From the NCBI RefSeq assembly GCF_008065095.1, contig NZ_CP042911.1:210001-242000 (forward strand): a stretch of 32,000 nucleotides of DNA, in the 5' to 3' direction. This document shows positions 17,776 to 27,337 of this stretch, in pieces. The position numbers were made by a program, and so were the translations under genes. How positions within the stretch are numbered: the stretch's first letter is position 1; each line of letters opens with the position of its first letter. A model generated the notes under the pieces. That model was not told where the DNA came from. It saw only the letters and a list, made by a program, of their open reading frames with translations, and did no database searches. Source of the stretch: Gemmata obscuriglobus (GTDB lineage: Bacteria > Planctomycetota > Planctomycetia > Gemmatales > Gemmataceae).

Positions 17776-18717
17776 TCAATCGGCAGCGAGCGAAAAATCG
17801 AACACCTGGTAGCGGTGGTCACTGCTACTGTTTAGCCCGCCAAGTCGGTACCGGACGGGAGTTATCCGCGGGCCGTGCAGACAGTGATCGAGGTCGTAGA
17901 TCGGCACCGGAACGGGCCAAGTTGCACCCCAACCGCCACCGGCAGTGTAATAGGCGTGAGCGTAACCGGCCGGTAGCTCCGTCAGGGCACGGGACCGGCG
18001 CGGGGCATTGAAGTCGCCGACGATCAGGTCCGGTCGGTGTCGCTCGATCAGCGCATTCACCTCGCGCAGCAACGGGTTACGAGCGACCCACACGCTAGAC
18101 GGCAGATCGAGTACGAACAGAGTGATCGGGCACCCGTCCGGCGCCCAGGTCACGGCCTGGACTTCGAATCCGTCCCGGTCAACCAGCCATCCGTCTGCGC
18201 GCAAGTTGCCCCGTCCGACCACGGCCAGGTTCGCAAAAGTGGCCGCTCGGTATTCGGCTCCGAGTTGATCACGCAACACCCCGACGTGGGCGGCGTTGAC
18301 CGCGTCCGTAAGCACGTACAGATCCGCACGTTCTGCCAGGAGGTGTTCACCGACACCCGATCGGGCCGGGCGCCCGGCCGTGTTCCAGTGAACGACTCGA
18401 AATCGGCCCGTGCCATCGGCCGGAATGTACTCGGCGCGGTTCTCGATCAGGCCGACGAACGCGACCACCGGAAGCGCGCCGCCGGCAGCCAGGAGCGCCG
18501 CCCGTCGTCTTCCAGTCGCGGCGTACATGAACGCGATGGCGACCAAAACGGCGGCCACGACGACCGACGGGATGTAGAAGCAGACGCCGGTGATCCAGGT
18601 GGTATCGCGAGCAAGTTGGCCGACGCCCCAGGCGGCGAGAAGGCACACTGCTCCGGGCGCCACTGCGGTGTACCCACGAGCGAACAGAGACCGAGCGGTT
18701 GATTGCGAGGGCGACAT
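17776..18717 (-). CDS. Membrane-anchored endonuclease/exonuclease/phosphatase (EEP) family protein; cluster gene D
   Basis: ATG at 18717, 13 nt after the stop of gene C. About three N-terminal TM helices. EEP core 'FRVVHWN', 'DLYVLTD', 'LIVGDFN' and terminal 'SDHRYQVFDF'. Confidence 0.8.
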   Translation of the reverse strand: MSPSQSTARSLFARGYTAVAPGAVCLLAAWGVGQLARDTTWITGVCFYIPSVVVAAVLVAIAFMYAATGRRRAALLAAGGALPVVAFVGLIENRAEYIPADGTGRFRVVHWNTAGRPARSGVGEHLLAERADLYVLTDAVNAAHVGVLRDQLGAEYRAATFANLAVVGRGNLRADGWLVDRDGFEVQAVTWAPDGCPITLFVLDLPSSVWVARNPLLREVNALIERHRPDLIVGDFNAPRRSRALTELPAGYAHAYYTAGGGWGATWPVPVPIYDLDHCLHGPRITPVRYRLGGLNSSSDHRYQVFDFSLAAD

Positions 18718-18730
18718 GGCGAATTCACTG

Positions 18731-21457
18731 CTATGGACCAGAAACGGCGAACAGGAACACGATGAACACAACCGTGAACAGCACCAACCCCAGGCACCCG
18801 CTCTTCTTCGCCTTCTTGTGCCGCTTTTTTCGGCCCTTCGAGTGCCGGTCGTCCTCGTCGTCATCAGACGATTGCTCTTCGCGGTCGGGCACAAAAGCCG
18901 ATCGGGAGGCATTCTTTTGAGGTCGCGAGATTTGCCGGCGCAGCCGCTCTACCGCAAGCGGGTCCAGCGCCGTCGACTGCGACGCGCTCTCGATCAGCGC
19001 CGCGAGGTTCATGTCCGGCACGCATGCGAGAATCAGGTGCGCTTGCAGCGCGCCGCGTGCGCGGGTGGGGCCGTCGTCGGAAAGGCGCACCGCCTCACTC
19101 GCGACCCGTCGAGCGGCGTTAAACGTCCCGTCCGTCGGGAAGCACACCCGGAACAGTTCGACGACCGGCGCCAGTTCGTCGGCCCCGTCGGGCAGGGCGA
19201 GGTCGGCGCCGCCGAGTTGCTTGTACACGACCCGCACAAGGTCGATGCGTTCCACCCCGAACGTGTCGCAGGCCTGCGGGACTTCGTCCGGGGTATCGAG
19301 CGGAATCGCAGTCGGGTCATTCACCCACCTCACCAGCGCGTTCGCCGCGAACAGTCGCGCAACGCCACCCGGGGGCAGCGCCTGCACCAGCCGCGCGCCG
19401 CTGGCGGTCAGCCGTTCGGCGGCGAGACGCAGGTGGGCCTGGACCTTTCGTTCCCAGCGGTGGATGACCACCGTTTCGTCCCCACTCGCAGCTCCGAGCA
19501 GGTCCGGCGACAGCAGCGCCGGGCTGAGCAGTTCCAGGTACCCGGCCCACACGTCGCGACCGGCGCCGTCACCGCCGAACCCGACCAGCAGGTGCGCGAG
19601 CCGGTTGTTCTCCAGAAGGAAATCGCCCCACGCGCCCTGGAGCATTTCGACGATGTGGCACAGCTTCAACCAGTCGCCCGGTTCGAGAGCGCCGGCCGCG
19701 AGCAGCCGGTCCATCAGTCCGGCGGCTGCGGGTGTGTACGGCGCGAACAGCGTCGTGAGCAGGGCGGGCTCGGTATCGAGGAACGGCCCCGCGGCGCGCA
19801 CGTACGCCGCGGCCGCGGCCGGAGGGGCGGCCAAGAGGTACTCGCGGGCGTGGGTCCGCATTGTGTCGCGATCGGGCGGCGGTACATGCGCGAGCCAGTC
19901 GAACCGATCGTCCGCGAGTACCACGAACGCAACGTACCCGGCCCAGTCCGGTTGCGTGTGGAGCAGCGGCTCCAGTTCCCCCGCCGTAACGGGCACCAGC
20001 AGCGCGCGGGGCGGGAACTGGTTCACGTCCGCGCAGGCGGTCCGCAACTCGGACCGCGCGGCGACGGGCAACCGGGACAGCTTCGCTTCGTTCTTCTCGC
20101 GGCCCACCAGCTTGTCGAGCAGCCGTCGCGCCTCGTCCGCGCCGACCGACTCGCGCAGCGCCGACCAGCACGCGCCCCAGCGGCGGAGGTCGTCCCGCAA
20201 AAGCGCGGCGATCGCGTCTTCCCAGAGCTCGCGGGCGTGCTCGGGCCGGGCGATCAGTTCGCGGAACGCGGCCCTCACGTCGGGACGCGCCAGCGCGGGT
20301 TCCTTCACCACGGCCCACACGCGCGTCACTCGCGCGGCCAGCTCCTCCCGCGCGAGCGGGTCGGCCTGGAGCGCGAGCAGGTCGCCGACGCTGGCGGTTC
20401 CGGCGTCGGTGCGGGCCAACCGGCGGGTGCGGGCGAGCGCGGCGCCGGCGCGGGGCAGCCCGCTCGGGTCCGGCCCGACCGCTTGCCGCACCGCGGGTAA
20501 CAGGCCCCACTCGCCGGCCGCCGCCAGTTCGACCAGCGCGGCGAGGCCAGTGCCGGCATCGCCCCCGTCCGGTGCGCGCAGCTCGGGCGACGAACGGGCG
20601 GGCGCGAAGGTGTCGAGGGCGATGCCGCGGGTGGTGCCGAGGTCCGGTTCGAGCCCGCGCTCGGGGCTACCGGTGTACGTGCCGACCACCTCCGCGAGCT
20701 TGTAATCCCGCAGGTTCCGCTGGTGCGGCTCGAACGTGCTGAACGTCAGGTCGTCGGTGACGGCTGGCGGGAGCAGCCGCACCGCACCGTAGAGGAGCAG
20801 GGCCACCAGACCGGGCTCGGCGTGAACGAACAGCCGGCGGCGTGCGGCGTCCTCCTCCTCGGCAAGTAGGAGCATCGCGCGGAGCATACGGGCGAACAGC
20901 GCGCGGCGCTCGGGCGCAGAGGCGCGGAGGCGCGAGGGGCACACGGTCCGGCTCAGTTCGGTCGGGCCGGAGGCACCGTCGTTCAGGAACGCGGCGAGGG
21001 CGTCGTCGTTCACCAGTTCGCCAGGGGGCAGCCCGGCGTTGCGCGGCAGTGCCTTCGATTCTGCGGGCGGGTAACTTGTCACCCACTCCTCGCTCCCCCA
21101 GGAGCGCAGCACCTCAGCGGGCTCGGCAGCGGGGAGCAGGAGCAGGTGCGAGAAGTACGAGCGGTCGCGGCCGACGGTGTCTTTTGCGAGGTACGCCGAG
21201 TGAACGGCCCACACGCGACCGCCCCTCGGGACTTTGGTGCGGGCCAGCCGACGTGGCGCGAACTCGGGCGCCGGCGGGTCGCGCCACAGTTCGAGGGGCA
21301 GTTCGTAGGGCGGGTACTGGAACGCGGCGTCGAGCGCGGCCGGGTCGGTGACGGACGCGGCGCGGACGGTGTACCCGGGGTCGTTCCGGACGCTGTCCGC
21401 GACGGCGCAGTGGGTGACGTAGAACTGGTCACCGCCCGCTTCCGGCACGCGCCCCAT
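18731..21457 (-). CDS. 908-aa tail-anchored protein with a GAP1-N2-like N-terminal Cys/His domain; cluster gene C
   Basis: ATG at 21457 with 'AGGGGA' upstream. 'DQFYVTHCAVADSVRNDPGYTVRAASV' (Cys17), 'GRDRSYFSHLLLL' (His104) and 'LRSWGSEEW' resemble, from memory, the GAP1-N2 pattern 'QLYYTSC..G..G..GFQ..A.S' / 'GNYFAH' / 'LW.s..W'. The body is Ala/Leu/Arg-rich and helical. The charged tail 'SSDDDEDDRHSKGRKKRHKKAKK' is followed by a C-terminal TM 'CLGLVLFTVVFIVFLFAV'. I am confident of the CDS; the family assignment needs an HMM check. Confidence 0.7.
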   Translation of the reverse strand: MGRVPEAGGDQFYVTHCAVADSVRNDPGYTVRAASVTDPAALDAAFQYPPYELPLELWRDPPAPEFAPRRLARTKVPRGGRVWAVHSAYLAKDTVGRDRSYFSHLLLLPAAEPAEVLRSWGSEEWVTSYPPAESKALPRNAGLPPGELVNDDALAAFLNDGASGPTELSRTVCPSRLRASAPERRALFARMLRAMLLLAEEEDAARRRLFVHAEPGLVALLLYGAVRLLPPAVTDDLTFSTFEPHQRNLRDYKLAEVVGTYTGSPERGLEPDLGTTRGIALDTFAPARSSPELRAPDGGDAGTGLAALVELAAAGEWGLLPAVRQAVGPDPSGLPRAGAALARTRRLARTDAGTASVGDLLALQADPLAREELAARVTRVWAVVKEPALARPDVRAAFRELIARPEHARELWEDAIAALLRDDLRRWGACWSALRESVGADEARRLLDKLVGREKNEAKLSRLPVAARSELRTACADVNQFPPRALLVPVTAGELEPLLHTQPDWAGYVAFVVLADDRFDWLAHVPPPDRDTMRTHAREYLLAAPPAAAAAYVRAAGPFLDTEPALLTTLFAPYTPAAAGLMDRLLAAGALEPGDWLKLCHIVEMLQGAWGDFLLENNRLAHLLVGFGGDGAGRDVWAGYLELLSPALLSPDLLGAASGDETVVIHRWERKVQAHLRLAAERLTASGARLVQALPPGGVARLFAANALVRWVNDPTAIPLDTPDEVPQACDTFGVERIDLVRVVYKQLGGADLALPDGADELAPVVELFRVCFPTDGTFNAARRVASEAVRLSDDGPTRARGALQAHLILACVPDMNLAALIESASQSTALDPLAVERLRRQISRPQKNASRSAFVPDREEQSSDDDEDDRHSKGRKKRHKKAKKSGCLGLVLFTVVFIVFLFAVSGP

Positions 21458-21619
21458 GTGCTGTCCCCTGTGTTCAAGTGCCAGGTTCCGAATCCGATGG
21501 GGAGCGTTCGGTGATTACAGCCGCTGATGTCGTTCTGGTCCGGTGCGCGGCCCGCTCGCGGCGCGAACAGTGCGTTGAGCTTCAGGACCACTGCTCTCAT
21601 TCATGGTCCGGTTGCGGAT

Positions 21620-21717
21620 GTCTGTTTATGGCCCATGTCTTTGTGGCACAGGCATTCCTGCCTGTGCAGCCATTTCGCACCGCACAGACAGGAATGTCTG
21701 TGCCACAAGAAACAGAC
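21620..21717 (-). other. Large imperfect hairpin in the B-C intergenic region
   Basis: The core arms 21640-21667 and 21682-21709 pair over about 28 bp with one mismatch and one G-U pair, around a 14-nt loop. A 7-bp outer stem (21620-21626 with 21711-21717) lies across an internal loop. No U-tract follows on the minus strand. Confidence 0.7.
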
Positions 21718-21795
21718 GCAACTAACCGGATCGTGGATCAGCAAGCCTGGGTGCTTTCGCACCGACTCGCGGGCCGCACACCGGACCGGAGCCGG

Positions 21796-24726
21796 TCACC
21801 AGCGGGTGCCGGTCGGGCTCGCGGTGCCGGAACCGACCGGGACCGGTCCGATGTTGAGCGCGGGTCCGTAGATCGTCTTCCAGCCCAGCTCCACCACCGG
21901 CCACACGGTGACGTAGGCGTGCGTGGCGCCGGCGGGCGGCACCAGCGTGACGCCGCCGCCCTCGCGCTGGTGGTTCTCGGCCAGGCAGTTGAGGCGCGAG
22001 TACGGGTCCGCTTCCGCCGGGTCGGTGAGGAACCGCCGGGCGTCCACCGCGACGACGCAGTGCGCGATCAGCCCGTGCCCGCCCCACGACCAGCACGCCT
22101 TCACCAGCCCGCCGCGCTTGCCCGTGATCGTGTACGCGGGGTACGCCGGGACCAGGCGCGCGTCGCCCGCGAGCCGGGCGCGCACCTGCGCTTCGATGGC
22201 GGCCCTCGTCCCGGCGTCGAACGCGTCGTGGTGCTCGCGCAAGAGGGCCATGTCTTCGGGGGCGAGCGGGCTGCCGGTCGTGATCCGCTGCCGGATGGCG
22301 ACCACCCGCTCCGCGCGCGCCAGCAGGTCCCCCACCTCGGCCGCCCGCGCCACCAGCGGCGGGTAGTCCGTGAGGTCCGGCCCCGGCGCGCCGAGCCGCG
22401 CGAGCAGCGTAAACATGTCGCGCGCCTTGAGCGCCTCGGACACCTTGGCCCACTTCTCGAGCCGGTCGCGGGCCAGCGTGAGCCGCTCGCGCAGCTCCTC
22501 GCGGTCCACGCACCCGGTGAGCAGCTTCCCGTGTTCGCCCCACAGCGCCAGCCACTTCTGGTCCTGCCGGTCCTTGCGCCGCTCTTCGCGATCGATGCTC
22601 GCGAACCGGTCGAGCAGCTTGCGCCGCACCACCGCCTCCTCGGCCCGCCGGAACAGCCCGGGGTTCACCTTGTCGAGGCGGGCCGCGAACCGGAGGTTCC
22701 GCGCCTTGAGGCGGTCGTAGGCGGTCGCGATGGCCCGGTCCGACGGCTGCGGCCGGTCCGCCTCGCGGCGCAGCTCGGCCAGCAGTTGCACCGACTCGGA
22801 GCCCTCGAGCACCCGGACGGTGTGCGGGTGCGGGTAGTTCGGCGGCAGCTTGCCCGCCGCGGCGAGCACCGCCTCCTCCGGGCCGCCCTGTTCGGCGCTC
22901 CGGATCGCCCGGTCCAGCGCCTCGACGAGGGCGAGCCGGGCGCGGGCCTCGGTCACGCGTGCGGCGAACGGCGCCGCCTCGCCGCACCCGCCGAGCCCCG
23001 CCCCGTCCCCCCAGGCGGCGACCAGCTTGGCGTCGTTCTCGTGGGACGCGACGGCGGGGACGCGGCGCAGCTTCTCCAGCGCCGGCCACCAGCGGGCCGC
23101 GTTCTCGCCGCGGGCGCGGTGTATGGGGGTGAGAGACGGGTGCGGCGGGCCGGCCGTGAGCACCCCCTGCCACGCGTCGGCCAGCTCGCGCTCGACTTGC
23201 GGGTTCTTGGCGCACGCCGCCAGGAACGCGTCGGCGGCGCGGATGCGGATGCGCCAGCCGTTCGCGGCGGCCTCGTAGGCGCGGGCCTCCGCGGCGCCCG
23301 ACAGTTTTGGGGCCGAGTCGCTCCAGAGCTTCACGAGCGTGCGCCCGTCGCCCGGGTTCACGGTCGCGGCCTTCAGCGCGTCGAGCAGCGCGACCTGTCC
23401 GGCCGCGGCCCGCGCGGCGGTCAGGACTTGGGGCTCCAGCCAGTCGTCGAGCAGCGCGGGCTGGTACGCGGCGGCGGCCGCTCGCGGGTTCCGCTCGTCG
23501 AGCGCCCGCTTGAGCGCGTCGCGGGCGGCGACCCGCTGGCGCGCGGCGTCGCAGGTGACGCGCACGTCGGGCGGAAGGGCACGCCCGGCGGCCGGCAGCC
23601 GTTCGCACTCGGCCGCGATGCGGGGCCAGTCCTTGACTCGCGCGTCGCACAGCTCCTTCAGCGCGGCGACGGGATCGGCGCCGCCCCTGAGGTCCGCGGG
23701 CAGGTCCTTCCCGGCGCGCTGGAGCCGGACCGTCTCCGTCTCGATCTGCGCCCAGTCGCGCGCGGACACCGTGAGCAGCGCCCGGAGCCGGGCGAACGGG
23801 TCAAGGGTGAATGGCGGGATCTGGGCGAACGGCTTGTTGAGCGACGCGCGGAGGTTCCGCGCCCACTCCGCGACCTCGGGGTCCTTCGACCGCATCAGGT
23901 CCGGCCAGAGCTGCGACTTCGCGGGCCGCTCCATGTCCGCGGGGGTGAACAGCAGATTCTCGTTGTCCGTCTTGAGGACGTACTTCACGTACAGTTGCGG
24001 GTCCGCGGCGATCGCGCGGAGTGCGACCAGGACGACCCAGGCCGAGAAGTGGTCGAGGTCAGCGCCGAGCCGCTCCGCGGCCCGCGCCGGGTGCTGGTAC
24101 GCGGGCTTGCCGAACTCCAACTGGTCGAGCCGCTGCTTCGGGTCGGCGGGGGCCAGCGCCGGGACGCACATGCCGTCGTAGTCGACCAGCACCGGGGCGT
24201 CGTTGACCACCAGCACGTTGTCGTGCTGGAGGTCACCGTGCGCAATCTGCGTCGCCTGGAGCTGCTGCACCAGCCCGACCCAGCTCTCGGCCATCCGCTT
24301 CAGGGCTGCGACGTCGGGCACCTTCCGTTCCGTCGTTTGGCGCACCCACTCGCCGAGCGCGACCCCCTTCACCCAGGCCATCGTGAGGGTCGGGTACCAC
24401 GCCTTCCCGACGCGGATGCCCTCGGTGTGGTACTGGAACTTGACCACGCACGGCGGCTTCTTCGGCCCGAGCGTCCGCTCGAGGTAGTCGGACACCGCCT
24501 TATACCGCCGGGCCCGGTCCTCGTTGGGGAAGTTGAACAGTTTGAGCGCGACGACCCCTTTAGGGCCGGTCATCTTGTACACGCTGGCGAACGCGCCGCT
24601 GCGGGCGCGGGGCACGCCCATCGGGCTGCGCTCCGCCTGGCTCTGCCGCAAATCCGGGTCGCGGAACGCGGTGTCCGGGTTCTGGAGCGAGTCCTTGTAG
24701 TCGGACTGTGTGGGCCAGCTCGCCAT
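21796..24726 (-). CDS. Protein-kinase-fold protein (976 aa) with a long degenerate helical-repeat region and a distinct C-terminal module; cluster gene B
   Basis: ATG at 24726 (the track's start at 24798 is GTG). 'SGAFASVYK' (glycine-loop equivalent), 'VALK' (Lys62), catalytic loop 'IAHGDLQHDNVLV' (Asp165, Asn170) and 'VDYDG' (DFG equivalent). About 8-9 degenerate ~50-60-aa units follow (e.g. 'ALKRALDERNPRAAAAAYQPALLDDW', 'LLDALKAATVNPGDGRTLVKLW', 'LVEALDRAIRSAEQGGPEEAVLAAA'). The last ~110 aa read 'ACWSWGGHGLIAHCVVAV...YVTVWPVVELGW'. Confidence 0.85.
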   Translation of the reverse strand: MASWPTQSDYKDSLQNPDTAFRDPDLRQSQAERSPMGVPRARSGAFASVYKMTGPKGVVALKLFNFPNEDRARRYKAVSDYLERTLGPKKPPCVVKFQYHTEGIRVGKAWYPTLTMAWVKGVALGEWVRQTTERKVPDVAALKRMAESWVGLVQQLQATQIAHGDLQHDNVLVVNDAPVLVDYDGMCVPALAPADPKQRLDQLEFGKPAYQHPARAAERLGADLDHFSAWVVLVALRAIAADPQLYVKYVLKTDNENLLFTPADMERPAKSQLWPDLMRSKDPEVAEWARNLRASLNKPFAQIPPFTLDPFARLRALLTVSARDWAQIETETVRLQRAGKDLPADLRGGADPVAALKELCDARVKDWPRIAAECERLPAAGRALPPDVRVTCDAARQRVAARDALKRALDERNPRAAAAAYQPALLDDWLEPQVLTAARAAAGQVALLDALKAATVNPGDGRTLVKLWSDSAPKLSGAAEARAYEAAANGWRIRIRAADAFLAACAKNPQVERELADAWQGVLTAGPPHPSLTPIHRARGENAARWWPALEKLRRVPAVASHENDAKLVAAWGDGAGLGGCGEAAPFAARVTEARARLALVEALDRAIRSAEQGGPEEAVLAAAGKLPPNYPHPHTVRVLEGSESVQLLAELRREADRPQPSDRAIATAYDRLKARNLRFAARLDKVNPGLFRRAEEAVVRRKLLDRFASIDREERRKDRQDQKWLALWGEHGKLLTGCVDREELRERLTLARDRLEKWAKVSEALKARDMFTLLARLGAPGPDLTDYPPLVARAAEVGDLLARAERVVAIRQRITTGSPLAPEDMALLREHHDAFDAGTRAAIEAQVRARLAGDARLVPAYPAYTITGKRGGLVKACWSWGGHGLIAHCVVAVDARRFLTDPAEADPYSRLNCLAENHQREGGGVTLVPPAGATHAYVTVWPVVELGWKTIYGPALNIGPVPVGSGTASPTGTRW

Positions 24727-24833
24727 TGTCCTGCTACGTTCCTTTGGCCTGGCGAGCGGGGGCTCACGCCCCAACGTCACGCGAATGCAACCAGCCACCG
24801 GGCGTTCAGTCGTTTCAAGTTCGTTATGCGTGC

Positions 24834-24899
24834 CACCCGCCCGCTGACGCAGGCGGTTCGACCGCAGTTCGTCGAACCGCCTGCGTCAGCGGGCGGGTG
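24834..24899 (-). other. Perfect 29-bp-stem hairpin in the A-B intergenic region (terminator or attenuator candidate)
   Basis: 24834-24862 'cacccgcccgctgacgcaggcggttcgac' is the exact reverse complement of 24871-24899. The loop is 8 nt. No U-tract follows on the minus strand. Confidence 0.8.
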
Positions 24900-24985
24900 T
24901 AACCTCGGCGCGTCTCGATCCCGCGACCGATCTCATCAGCACCTTACCTCCTTGAAACCACTGGCATTCGTTCGACCTGTAGGGC

Positions 24986-27196
24986 TCACTCTCTCCGCTC
25001 ACCGGCGAAAACCTCGTACCCGTGCATGTGGAGCAGCCACAAGAAAGGCTCCGCTACCCCAAACGGCGCGATCGTGCGTTTCGACAGGTCCTCAACCCCC
25101 AGTTCGTTCTCGAACAGGCTCACCGACGACACTGGGAAGAACAGCACCTGCCTCCCGAAGTAGCTCTCCACGACGGCCCGCACGTCCACGCCGCGGAATA
25201 TCAACTCTAACATGTCCTCGACCAGATCGCTGCGCTCCCGCACAAGGTCCAGGGTGGTGCGCTTCGGCTGCGCCGGCGTCAGGTCGCCCAACAACTTGCG
25301 GACGAACTGCACCGACTGGCCCGCGATCGGGTTGCGGGTCACCAGCAGGTCGAACTTCGGGATCACCACCGCCACCGGGACCGGGATCACGTCCCCGGGC
25401 GCCACCCGGCGCGCCTCCCGCATGTCGGCCATAAACTCGTTCAGTGCCGCCAGTTGCCGGTCGAGCGTCACCCCGCCCTTGCGCCCGTCGAGCTGGGTCG
25501 GGTCGAGGAACAGCATGAACCCGTCCATTTTAACCGCCTGCTTCTTCAGGCGGTCCACGTCGATCTTCTGGTTCACCAGCTCGCCCGAGTAGTCGAACAG
25601 GTTCACTAGCGCGGTGTTGGCGCCCGCCGGATCGATATCCCGGACGTGCATCATAACCGGGTCCGGCGGGGTGTTCACGTCGTGCAGGGTGTTGCCCGCG
25701 TCGCGCTTCAGGTTCAGGATGAGGTCGATGTAGAGGTCGAACCGCTCGTCCCCGAGCGAGGGGGCCGCAATGATGGTCGCGGCCGTCGGGGCCACCTGCT
25801 TACGGACCTTGTCGTAGGCGGTCGCGAGCAGGTGCGTTTTGCCGCTGTTCCGCACGCCCACCACCGGGAAGCAGAGCCGGCGGACGCGCTGGTAGCTGCG
25901 CAAGAACCTGAATCCGCAAGTCTTGCACTCGACGTATCCCGATTCGGTGGGCTCCGCCGTGGCCGGCCCGGGTTTGCGTTTCGGCTGCGGCGGCTTTCGG
26001 TTCGCGGCCCGGTAGCGCGGGCGTGTCGCGGCCTCGTCTTCTGCGGCGAACCCCTCGGGTGCGGAAATCGTGCCCGTTTTCTCGACCACGAGCTTTTCGC
26101 TGAAGCACCGGGGGCACTTCTTCGCGTCCGCTTTGATCCGGGCGGCCTCTGTGCGCACTGCGTGCCGATAGGGCAGAACCGCCAGCCCGAACAGCAGCGC
26201 GGCCGCGCCGCACCGAACCGCCGCGAACCCGATCGCCCGCCACCGGGCGCCGCCCCGGAGTTCATCGAGTTTGGCTCGGTCGATCGCGAGCTGGGCCTGA
26301 TCGGTTTCCGCTTCCTGCGTGAACCGGACGGCAAGCCGCGCGTCGCGCGCCGCGGATCGGAGCCGCTCCCAAACGAGGGATTCGCCCTCACGCACCACCT
26401 TTTCGGCGGATGTCCCGGGTGCGGCGACCAATTTCGCCCACGAGTCGGCCGCGGCCGCCCACTTTTTGTCCGCCTCGGCTTCCGCCGCCTCGGCCCGTGC
26501 GGTCGCTTCCTTCGTGCTGGCGGTCAGTTCGCCTTCTTCACGCACGGCCCAGACGGCGAAGCCCGGGTCGAAGGAGGGCGAGCACCCTGAGACAGCGGGG
26601 AGCACCAGCACCAGTGCCACGCCCGCGGCACGCCGCAAGCGGCGAAGCGACACCCGCTGCGCCCGCGCGCCCAACCCGCGCGCCACCGCGAACACGACCG
26701 CCGCGCACACCAGCAGCCCGACATCGGCGGGGGTGAGCTGAAATGAGCGGTGCGTACCGGCCTCGAGGTCGAACCCGTAGGCCGTCTGCTGCTGGTCCGC
26801 GTACCGGTGGAACGCGACCTTTTGCTTGTACACCTCTTCCCACTCGCGCCGCGCGGCGTCCGCCCGCGCCCGCGCCGACTCCGACATCCTCAGCGCGGCG
26901 TCGCGGAGTGCGTCGTAGTCTCTGCCGAGTATGGGGACCAGTTCGTTGACCAGCACCGACGGGTCTTGCGTCTGCCCGACCGATCGGTCGACCGGGCGCG
27001 GGGGCGAAATGAGGTCGGCCTCCCACCCGGCGGCCTCCCGCCGGGCGTGCTGCCGGTGCCAGTCGTACCGCAACCCGGCCAACCGCTCCGCTTCGGGGAG
27101 CGGTTCGGCACGGGCCGGCCCGCCGATCGCCAACACAGCCAGCACGGCACCGAGCATCAGGGCGCGGCGGCGGGGCCGGCAGTAAGATTCGGCCAT
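24986..27196 (-). CDS. Multi-pass membrane protein with a zinc ribbon and a C-terminal P-loop GTPase-like domain (736 aa); cluster gene A
   Basis: ATG at 27196 (the track's start at 27232 is ATT). Signal peptide 'LMLGAVLAVLAIGGPARA'. Three TM helices: 'VGLLVCAAVVFAVARGL', 'AGVALVLVLPAVSG' and 'AIGFAAVRCGAAALLFGLAVL'. Zn ribbon 'CPRC'...'CKTC' (residues 361-427). Walker A 'GVRNSGKT' (nt 25835-25858). G3/Walker B 'LVNLFDYSGE'. NKxD-like 'VVIPKFDLL'. Confidence 0.85.
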   Translation of the reverse strand: MAESYCRPRRRALMLGAVLAVLAIGGPARAEPLPEAERLAGLRYDWHRQHARREAAGWEADLISPPRPVDRSVGQTQDPSVLVNELVPILGRDYDALRDAALRMSESARARADAARREWEEVYKQKVAFHRYADQQQTAYGFDLEAGTHRSFQLTPADVGLLVCAAVVFAVARGLGARAQRVSLRRLRRAAGVALVLVLPAVSGCSPSFDPGFAVWAVREEGELTASTKEATARAEAAEAEADKKWAAAADSWAKLVAAPGTSAEKVVREGESLVWERLRSAARDARLAVRFTQEAETDQAQLAIDRAKLDELRGGARWRAIGFAAVRCGAAALLFGLAVLPYRHAVRTEAARIKADAKKCPRCFSEKLVVEKTGTISAPEGFAAEDEAATRPRYRAANRKPPQPKRKPGPATAEPTESGYVECKTCGFRFLRSYQRVRRLCFPVVGVRNSGKTHLLATAYDKVRKQVAPTAATIIAAPSLGDERFDLYIDLILNLKRDAGNTLHDVNTPPDPVMMHVRDIDPAGANTALVNLFDYSGELVNQKIDVDRLKKQAVKMDGFMLFLDPTQLDGRKGGVTLDRQLAALNEFMADMREARRVAPGDVIPVPVAVVIPKFDLLVTRNPIAGQSVQFVRKLLGDLTPAQPKRTTLDLVRERSDLVEDMLELIFRGVDVRAVVESYFGRQVLFFPVSSVSLFENELGVEDLSKRTIAPFGVAEPFLWLLHMHGYEVFAGERRE

Positions 27197-27337
27197 GGTG
27201 GTCCGGATGGCGGTTGAGGCAACGGCGCCCAATTTAACCTAAGGACCGGTCACAGCGGCCGCAAGCCATTTCGCCCCTGCCATCCCGGTCCGTCGCCGGC
27301 GCTATCCGGGCGCGGCGTTAAGCCGTATCTTCTCCGC

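Follow-up and report, generated by a model that had tools for sequence, protein, structure and literature searches.

The gene on the minus strand at positions 18731 to 21457 of a 32,000-nucleotide stretch of Gemmata obscuriglobus DNA (assembly GCF_008065095.1, contig NZ_CP042911.1, positions 210,001 to 242,000; the whole stretch is termed the window) is, as judged from its sequence, the GAP1 (for GTPase-associated protein 1) subunit, of the N2 type, of a DO-GTPase-centered system. On balance, we consider it somewhat probable that the 908-residue product is a tail-anchored, DENN-like docking or regulatory subunit for the DO-GTPase and not an enzyme. Pfam profiles demonstrated membership of the GAP1 family, and comparisons of predicted proteins demonstrated a conserved linkage to a membrane DO-GTPase and a kinase-like protein as well as a conserved C-terminal anchor. 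The GAP1-N2 family and its C-terminal transmembrane helix are already known, the family having been defined computationally in 2020; the only point that could be new is the DENN/TagF-like architecture predicted for the N2 and M domains, for which the structural scores are weak.

Identification of the gene and its family

The open reading frame (ORF) runs on the minus strand from an ATG at 21457 to a stop codon at 18731 to 18733, and the plus-strand frame across the same positions is interrupted by stops. The guanine-plus-cytosine (GC) contents of the three codon positions were 0.77, 0.52 and 0.86, a pattern also seen in the real genes of the window, in a genome of ~67% GC. A chance ORF was excluded by a word-indexed database search, in which 132 relatives were detected at E ≤ 1e-3, and by an exhaustive profile search with a hidden Markov model for residues 1 to 275, in which 866 cluster representatives were detected at the same threshold. 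The named relatives of the protein were from Gemmata, the Gemmataceae and other Planctomycetes. Contig ABGO01000279 of the Gemmata obscuriglobus assembly GCA_000171775.1, which we take to be strain UQM 2246, has a called protein identical to this one. An earlier note on this DNA had described the ORF, its motifs and its residues, all of which were recovered in every detail, the strand alone requiring correction to minus. The motifs QFYVTHC and GRDRSYFSH occupy residues 11 to 17 and 96 to 104, respectively, hence Cys17 and His104, the two residues singled out in that note, are numbered correctly; GYTVRAASV lies at residues 28 to 36.

A GAP1-type N-terminal domain had been proposed in the earlier note and was recovered by profile searching. 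Pfam GAP1-N2 (PF20013) matched residues 10 to 139 with 36.5 bits relative to a gathering score of 24 (E = 6e-9; profile positions 3 to 135 of 139) and was followed by GAP1-M (PF20014) at residues 179 to 250 with 26.8 bits relative to a gathering score of 24 (E = 6.4e-6). No NCBIfam model and no PADLOC model matched the protein. From these matches and the structure models described below, we delimited a GAP1-N2 domain at residues 9 to 139 (21041 to 21433, minus strand), predicted to have a longin-like alpha+beta fold, a GAP1-M domain at residues 179 to 295 (20573 to 20923, minus strand), predicted to have a Rossmann-like alpha/beta fold, and an all-helical solenoid body at residues 300 to 845 (18923 to 20560, minus strand). 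This last region is a confidently predicted helical domain at the position of GAP1-C, and no GAP1-C profile or other Pfam model matched there.

Kaur, Burroughs, Iyer and Aravind (eLife 2020, PMC7159879) described GAP1, which is composed of N, M and C domains, as a co-evolving partner of "double-GTPases" in "GTPase-centric" conflict systems that occur in planctomycetes among other phyla. In their account, C-terminal transmembrane helices are frequent in GAP1s, which are membrane associated, and GAP1-N is a non-enzymatic constant element. No later paper on the GAP1 family was found in a literature search. The Gemmata protein resembles the GAP1-N2 systems of that account in having N2 and M domains above the Pfam cut-offs and a C-terminal transmembrane helix, in being encoded downstream of a type-2 DO-GTPase with a zinc ribbon and four N-terminal transmembrane segments and in its planctomycete host; a linked protein-kinase-like gene matches the "third theme" of those systems. 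It differs in that this kinase-like gene occurs in the Gemmataceae, whereas the theme is reportedly confined to actinobacteria, in that the C-terminal part of GAP1 is a 550-residue helical solenoid without a Pfam model and in that a gene for a membrane enzyme of the endonuclease/exonuclease/phosphatase (EEP) type follows GAP1. No fibronectin type III (FNIII)-repeat protein was detected in the cassette by Pfam (no match at E ≤ 0.01 among the cassette proteins); the FNIII repeats of these systems have been called rapidly evolving (PMC7159879).

In a number of paralogues (P0069, P0077, P0087, P0102, P0104, P0105 and P0161, and at locus L005), the helical body and transmembrane helix are missing and the N2 and M module is instead joined to domains of the vWA, FGE-sulfatase (formylglycine-generating enzyme-like), HEAT or WD40 type. 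The vWA paralogue of Frigoriglobus (L005) has a kinase-like gene close by and no DO-GTPase within 10 kb.

Linkage to a membrane DO-GTPase

Four genes are arranged head to tail on the minus strand, in the order DO-GTPase2, a 976-residue kinase-like protein, GAP1 and a 313-residue EEP protein. The DO-GTPase2 gene (24986 to 27232, minus strand) lies two genes upstream of GAP1 and encodes 748 residues from a TTG at 27232, with a possible ATG start at 27196. Its product matched PF19993 with 34.3 bits relative to a cut-off of 27 and contains a single zinc ribbon (CPRC at residues 373 to 376 and CKTC at residues 436 to 439), a P-loop (GVRNSGKT, residues 459 to 466) and the motifs DYSGE (residues 547 to 551) and PKFD (residues 625 to 628). 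Four transmembrane segments were predicted in its N-terminal part, with spacing segments of ~110 to 130 residues. The trio of DO-GTPase, kinase-like and GAP1 genes recurs, with the DO-GTPase upstream of GAP1, at two related loci of the Gemmataceae, L003 and L004, whose GAP1 orthologues have 46% and 40% identity to this one; overall, the linkage is kept in relatives with 40 to 47% identity. The partners of GAP1 are, like GAP1 itself, membrane proteins: the DO-GTPase has the four predicted transmembrane segments, and the downstream EEP protein has two.

The C-terminal anchor

The C terminus of GAP1 reads ...EEQSSDDDEDDRHSKGRKKRHKKAKKSGCLGLVLFTVVFIVFLFAVSGP. The acidic and basic runs reported previously are present, the former at D865 to D870 and the latter at K874 to K885, where 9 of 12 residues are Lys or Arg. 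A single transmembrane helix was assigned to residues 887 to 905 (18743 to 18799, minus strand) from hydropathy, the AlphaFold2 (AF2) model and orthologues: this segment has a mean Kyte-Doolittle value of 2.88 and is the sole 19-residue window of the protein with a mean hydropathy of >2, AF2 placed a helix at residues 890 to 905 and only three residues (Ser-Gly-Pro) follow. The preceding stretch of residues 846 to 886 (18800 to 18922, minus strand), which contains both charged runs, is a disordered linker, with a predicted local distance difference test (pLDDT) score of <50 over residues 849 to 888, leaving a low-confidence connection of ~40 residues between the body and the helix. According to the positive-inside rule, the presence of nine Lys/Arg residues before the helix and three neutral residues after it indicates that the 885-residue body should be cytoplasmic. 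We infer that the GAP1 body is probably cytoplasmic and tethered by this flexible linker of ~40 residues.

A single C-proximal transmembrane segment was detected in ~64 of 68 orthologues, indicating that the anchor is a conserved property of the family and no peculiarity of this gene. The segment ends within 12 residues of the C terminus in 23 orthologues, as it does in the Gemmata protein, while most of the other orthologues with a transmembrane segment carry a Pro/Lys-rich tail of 20 to 70 residues after it. The tail-anchor arrangement put forward in the earlier note was, therefore, correct insofar as there is a single C-terminal transmembrane helix and no other, but it is not the oddity that was suggested, being a family trait both in these orthologues and in the account of Kaur et al. 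(2020). Close orthologues have the motif K-K-S-G-C-[LA]-G in common where the helix begins on its cytoplasmic side (residues 882 to 888; 18794 to 18814, minus strand), and a Cys is found at this edge in ~15 of the 68 orthologues.

Tail-anchored proteins are represented in bacteria by, for example, TssL, ElaB and YqjD. This GAP1 shares with them a single transmembrane segment in the last 25 residues, the lack of a signal peptide and a flank that is basic on the cytoplasmic side. It differs from them in having a far larger passenger (~885 residues) and in the retention of the anchor across a whole family.

Predicted structure and fold matches

A full-length AF2 model generated from a 67-sequence alignment had a mean pLDDT of 89 and a predicted TM-score (pTM) of 0.71. 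The model was all-helical over residues 300 to 845, with >30 helices and a pLDDT mostly of >90, in keeping with the helical body described in the earlier note. When this model was searched with Foldseek, armadillo/HEAT-type solenoids were detected at an E value of about 0.01, together with TagF (9t0n, probability 0.98). As the full-length search was swamped by armadillo/HEAT repeat proteins, residues 1 to 300 were modeled alone from a 101-sequence alignment, which resulted in a pLDDT of 95.4 and a pTM of 0.93.

In the N2 domain, AF2 assigned strands (E) and helices (H) as E9-17, E28-34, H39-46, E70-75, E82-92, E98-108 and H113-118, an order that matches the β-β-α-β-β-β-α of longin domains (predicted at a pLDDT of 95). 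A poorly structured stretch separates this domain from the helix at residues 181 to 200. The elements of the M domain were H181-200, E209-212, H215-228, E239-243, E257-260, H271-277 and E279-282, with E239-243 present only in the full-length model. In these models, the M domain consists of four β-α units up to residue 295, with an order also read as β-α-β-α-β-α-β, after which there are helices; in DENN proteins, the sheet of the core has five strands (PMC3521125).

The Foldseek search of the PDB with residues 1 to 300 ranked DENND10 first (8p0v_M; E = 8.8e-3, probability 0.82, 317 columns, TM-score 0.34) and TagF second (9t0n; E = 1.1e-2, probability 0.92, TM-score 0.38). These were followed by the folliculin-FNIP2 complex (6nzd_H, 6ulg_L/N and 8dhb_J) and Pseudomonas aeruginosa TagF (6iz8) and, further down, by GATOR1 (9v0j) and SEAC longin subunits. 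DENN/longin-type GTPase regulators or TagF accounted for 11 of the 14 top matches, and the remainder (GFP-like and hot-dog folds) we take to be noise.

The DENN module comprises a longin domain, a three-layer alpha/beta domain and the helical d-DENN, and the DENN and d-DENN parts are described as occurring together and only in the eukaryotic module (PMC3521125). The same order of a longin-like domain, an alpha/beta domain and a helical region is predicted for this GAP1 as for eukaryotic DENN proteins (DENND10 and DENND1B) and the longin-DENN complexes FLCN-FNIP2, C9orf72-SMCR8 and GATOR1 Nprl2/3, which are its top structural matches and whose function, like that of GAP1, is tied to a GTPase located at a membrane. 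It differs from them in the absence of sequence-level similarity, with TM-scores of only 0.2 to 0.34, in its bacterial host and in its partner, which is a TRAFAC "double-GTPase" and not a Rab, Arf or Rag protein. GAP-type longins, so far followed back to Asgard archaea and no further (PMC12290439), have a "GP" motif that GAP1 lacks; in its place, the loop that precedes strand 2 has [PS]-G-[FY].

TagF represses type VI secretion post-translationally and, according to its crystallographers, is built from two domains, one alpha+beta and the other alpha/beta (bioRxiv 10.64898/2025.12.08.692957). It shares this two-domain architecture with GAP1, for which it gave the highest Foldseek probability and TM-score with residues 1 to 300, and is likewise a bacterial protein at a membrane-associated machine. 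TagF differs in having no known GTPase partner, helical solenoid or transmembrane segment, and the sequence identity is ~11%. A literature search found no published link of TagF, GAP1 or bacterial proteins to DENN. A stronger version of the likeness, which we regard as possible but doubtful, is that the N2, M and helical regions of GAP1 are truly related, as a bacterial form, to the three-part DENN module and that TagF shares their fold. On that view, DO-GTPase and GAP1 would correspond, in prokaryotes and with a membrane anchor, to the small-GTPase/DENN or folliculin-type regulator pairs of eukaryotes, and Arg32 or Arg97 might be catalytic or sense the nucleotide.

The models also bear on the idea of GAP1 as a passive scaffold or sensor that stands outside the nucleotide cycle and links the DO-GTPase to a variable module with a sensing or effector role, the likeness to DENN and TagF being convergent or topological. 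Kaur et al. (PMC7159879) proposed such a role in general terms, and it accords with the large helical solenoid, which is typical of scaffolds, with the weak structural match scores and with the very varied C-terminal additions of the relatives (vWA, FGE-sulfatase, HEAT and WD40). We nevertheless think this idea unlikely: conservation is strongest in the N2 and M domains and not in the solenoid, and the structural matches recur specifically among longin/DENN proteins that regulate GTPases.

Conservation of Cys17, Arg32 and His104

Conservation was examined in two sets of relatives. The first was an alignment of the best 150 of the 866 cluster representatives, with 137 new sequences among the 150, and the second consisted of 67 further proteins obtained in a search from a distant member of the family (P0253), with names that include Patescibacteria, Rickettsiales, Kentrum, Pirellulaceae and Thermoguttaceae. 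In the first set, Cys17 (codon 21407 to 21409, minus strand) was Cys in 122/122 sequences, Arg32 (codon 21362 to 21364, minus strand) was Arg in 126/126 and His104 (codon 21146 to 21148, minus strand) was His in 118/131, with Q, R, D, Y or L in the remaining ~10%. High conservation was also observed for Gln11 (98%), Arg97 (96%), Trp120 and Trp125 (97 to 98%) and His86 (87%, with replacement by Q, K, S, C, P, N, R or Y in ~13%) but not for His16. The claim that Cys17 and His104 are conserved was thus borne out by the orthologue alignment, in which the two rank with the best-conserved positions.

The second set separated these residues. His104 was present in 67/67 proteins and His86 in 66/67. 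Cys17 was present in 48 of the 64 proteins with complete N termini, was replaced by Pro or Gly in the other 16 and could not be scored in three N-terminally truncated proteins. The 16 Cys-less proteins still score as GAP1-N2 plus GAP1-M and have, at position 32, Lys in 12, Arg in 3 and Thr in 1; Arg32 is, therefore, mostly lost along with Cys17, and the two residues appear, from this distribution, to act as a unit. The Cys-less clade (P0307 to P0321, P0323 and P0324) consists of proteins of ~815 to 832 residues that start with MKQLYS.GPL and keep His86, His104, Trp120 and Trp125. His104 was kept in all 16 Cys-less proteins, and Cys17 was kept in all 13 proteins with a His104 replacement. This independent loss is not the behavior expected of a catalytic Cys-His dyad.

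The relative positions of the conserved residues were estimated from covariation, calculated as mutual information with average product correction over 231 sequences (effective number, ~198). Although the signal was weak, cross-strand pairs were detected between strands 1 and 5 (13-102 and 9-108) and between strands 4 and 5 (92-98 and 83-107; register i + j = 190). The register suggested by this weak evidence places His104 beside Gln11/Tyr13 and His86 and places Cys17 opposite residues 98 to 100, so that Cys17 and His104 would be offset by 4 to 6 residues along the sheet.

These observations bear on the proposal of the earlier note that Cys17 and His104 form a thiol-hydrolase-like active site. 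GAP1-N2 would then be a peptidase, amidase or similar enzyme, with Cys17 as the nucleophile and His104 as the general base, held at the membrane for the processing of a partner or invader protein. The strong conservation of both residues in the first set and the persistence of His104 in all, and Cys17 in most, of the more distant relatives speak for such an enzyme, and signaling peptidases are often part of related conflict systems (PMC7159879). The independent losses, however, argue against it, as do the spacing suggested by covariation, the location of Cys17 at the end of a β-strand in a longin-like sheet and the description of GAP1-N as non-enzymatic by those who defined the family (PMC7159879). 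Furthermore, no cysteine-hydrolase fold was present among the top 50 Foldseek PDB matches of either model. The active-site proposal, hence, found no backing in the losses of the two residues or in the fold, and we consider a thiol hydrolase to be decidedly improbable.

Another use of the same residues would be in the binding of a metal such as Zn2+ by Cys17, His86 and His104, with Asp93 or Asp21 as a further ligand, either for stabilization of the sheet or as a redox or metal sensor gating the GTPase switch. All three residues are highly conserved, and His86 and His104 would be cross-strand neighbors in the register of β4 and β5. In that register, however, Cys17 would lie several residues away along the sheet, and AF2 folds the N-terminal domain confidently without a ligand. 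His86 (~13%) and His104 (~10%) are replaced independently of one another and of Cys17; a Zn site was down-weighted because the three positions vary independently, and we regard it as very improbable.

Proposed role of GAP1

The favored reading of GAP1 as a DENN-like subunit for the DO-GTPase can be stated as a series of steps. The body of GAP1 would be in the cytoplasm, held at the membrane on its flexible linker. The longin-like and Rossmann-like domains would form a DENN-like module. With the GTPase domain of the DO-GTPase, on the cytoplasmic side, as its docking site, this module may read or control the nucleotide state of the GTPase, in a manner resembling either a GTPase-activating protein or a guanine nucleotide exchange factor. 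The 550-residue helical solenoid would act as a scaffold to which the kinase-like protein is recruited; in this strain, it may also bring in the membrane EEP enzyme as an output. The polar residues Gln11, Thr15, Cys17, Arg32, His86, Asp93, Arg97, His104, Trp120 and Trp125 may mark a face of the longin-like sheet that serves for interaction or regulation, with a conserved polar patch centered on Cys17 and Arg32, to which His86, His104 and Arg97 also belong, as the probable working surface.

A number of observations weigh against this reading. No Foldseek match for residues 1 to 300 reached E ≤ 1e-3, the TM-scores were only 0.31 to 0.38 (0.2 to 0.38 for the top DENN-type matches, at E values of 0.009 to 0.02) and the root mean square deviations were 7 to 9 Å. 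A family profile of the N-terminal domain had zero matches among PDB sequences even at E ≤ 10, and no Pfam DENN, uDENN or longin model matched at E ≤ 10. Longin-like sheets also resemble PAS and roadblock folds, both of which appear lower in the Foldseek list. A Cys that is invariant in 122 sequences, with neither Ser nor Ala ever in its place, would not usually be expected of a surface that serves for docking alone. Finally, docking of GAP1 on the GTPase is proposed only because of gene linkage and fold analogy.

As GAP1 and the DO-GTPase are known from computation only, there is value in a clear and testable hypothesis for the N-terminal module, namely, docking on or regulation of the GTPase via a longin/DENN-like fold, with Cys17 and Arg32 as the key patch. 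Natural variants in which Cys17 and His104 are separated speak against designing experiments around a Cys-His hydrolase. Should the kinship with DENN prove true, the DENN/longin architecture of GTPase regulators would extend to bacteria, which would bear on the origin of the eukaryotic GTPase regulators. The surprise is limited, since both the family, described in 2020, and its tail anchor were known before.

Other genes of the cassette and window

The gene between DO-GTPase2 and GAP1 (21796 to 24726, minus strand) encodes a 976-residue protein with an N-terminal Ser/Thr-kinase-like domain, a long helical region and a β-rich C terminus. Residues 3 to 316 matched the PADLOC model STK_OB (E = 2.6e-54), and the kinase-like domain contains the motifs VALKLF, HGDLQHDN and DYDG; weak matches of the protein to PDB sequences were to protein kinases in 42 of 42 cases. 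In L003 (6548 to 9335), the kinase-like gene occurs as two separate ORFs of 556 and 367 residues.

The gene downstream of GAP1 (17776 to 18717, minus strand) begins 13 nucleotides past the GAP1 stop codon and encodes a 313-residue membrane protein with an EEP domain (PF03372, 26.7 bits relative to a cut-off of 24.5) and transmembrane segments at residues 45 to 63 and 73 to 91. This gene is called in L001 and L002. No counterpart was found in the related loci L003 to L005, so that the gene was rejected as a fixed component of the system and may instead be a strain-specific effector, making it a candidate for the variable effector.

The cassette contains unusually long non-coding gaps at 21458 to 21795 (338 nucleotides) and 24727 to 24985 (259 nucleotides), as compared to the 13-nucleotide junction between GAP1 and the EEP gene. 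A scan of the cassette for promoter and terminator consensus sequences was uninformative. The rest of the window has a housekeeping content, encoding an FtsX-type permease, a sigma-54 activator, MlaD, LigA, NDK, an epimerase, a major facilitator superfamily (MFS) transporter and a response regulator. In the related loci, a dual-specificity phosphatase gene is present directly upstream of the GTPase in L004 (3839 to 4300), and vWA-type genes are present downstream in L003 (19102 to 21654) and L004 (21226 to 22841). These phosphatase and vWA genes echo the kinase/phosphatase/vWA theme of Kaur et al. (2020).

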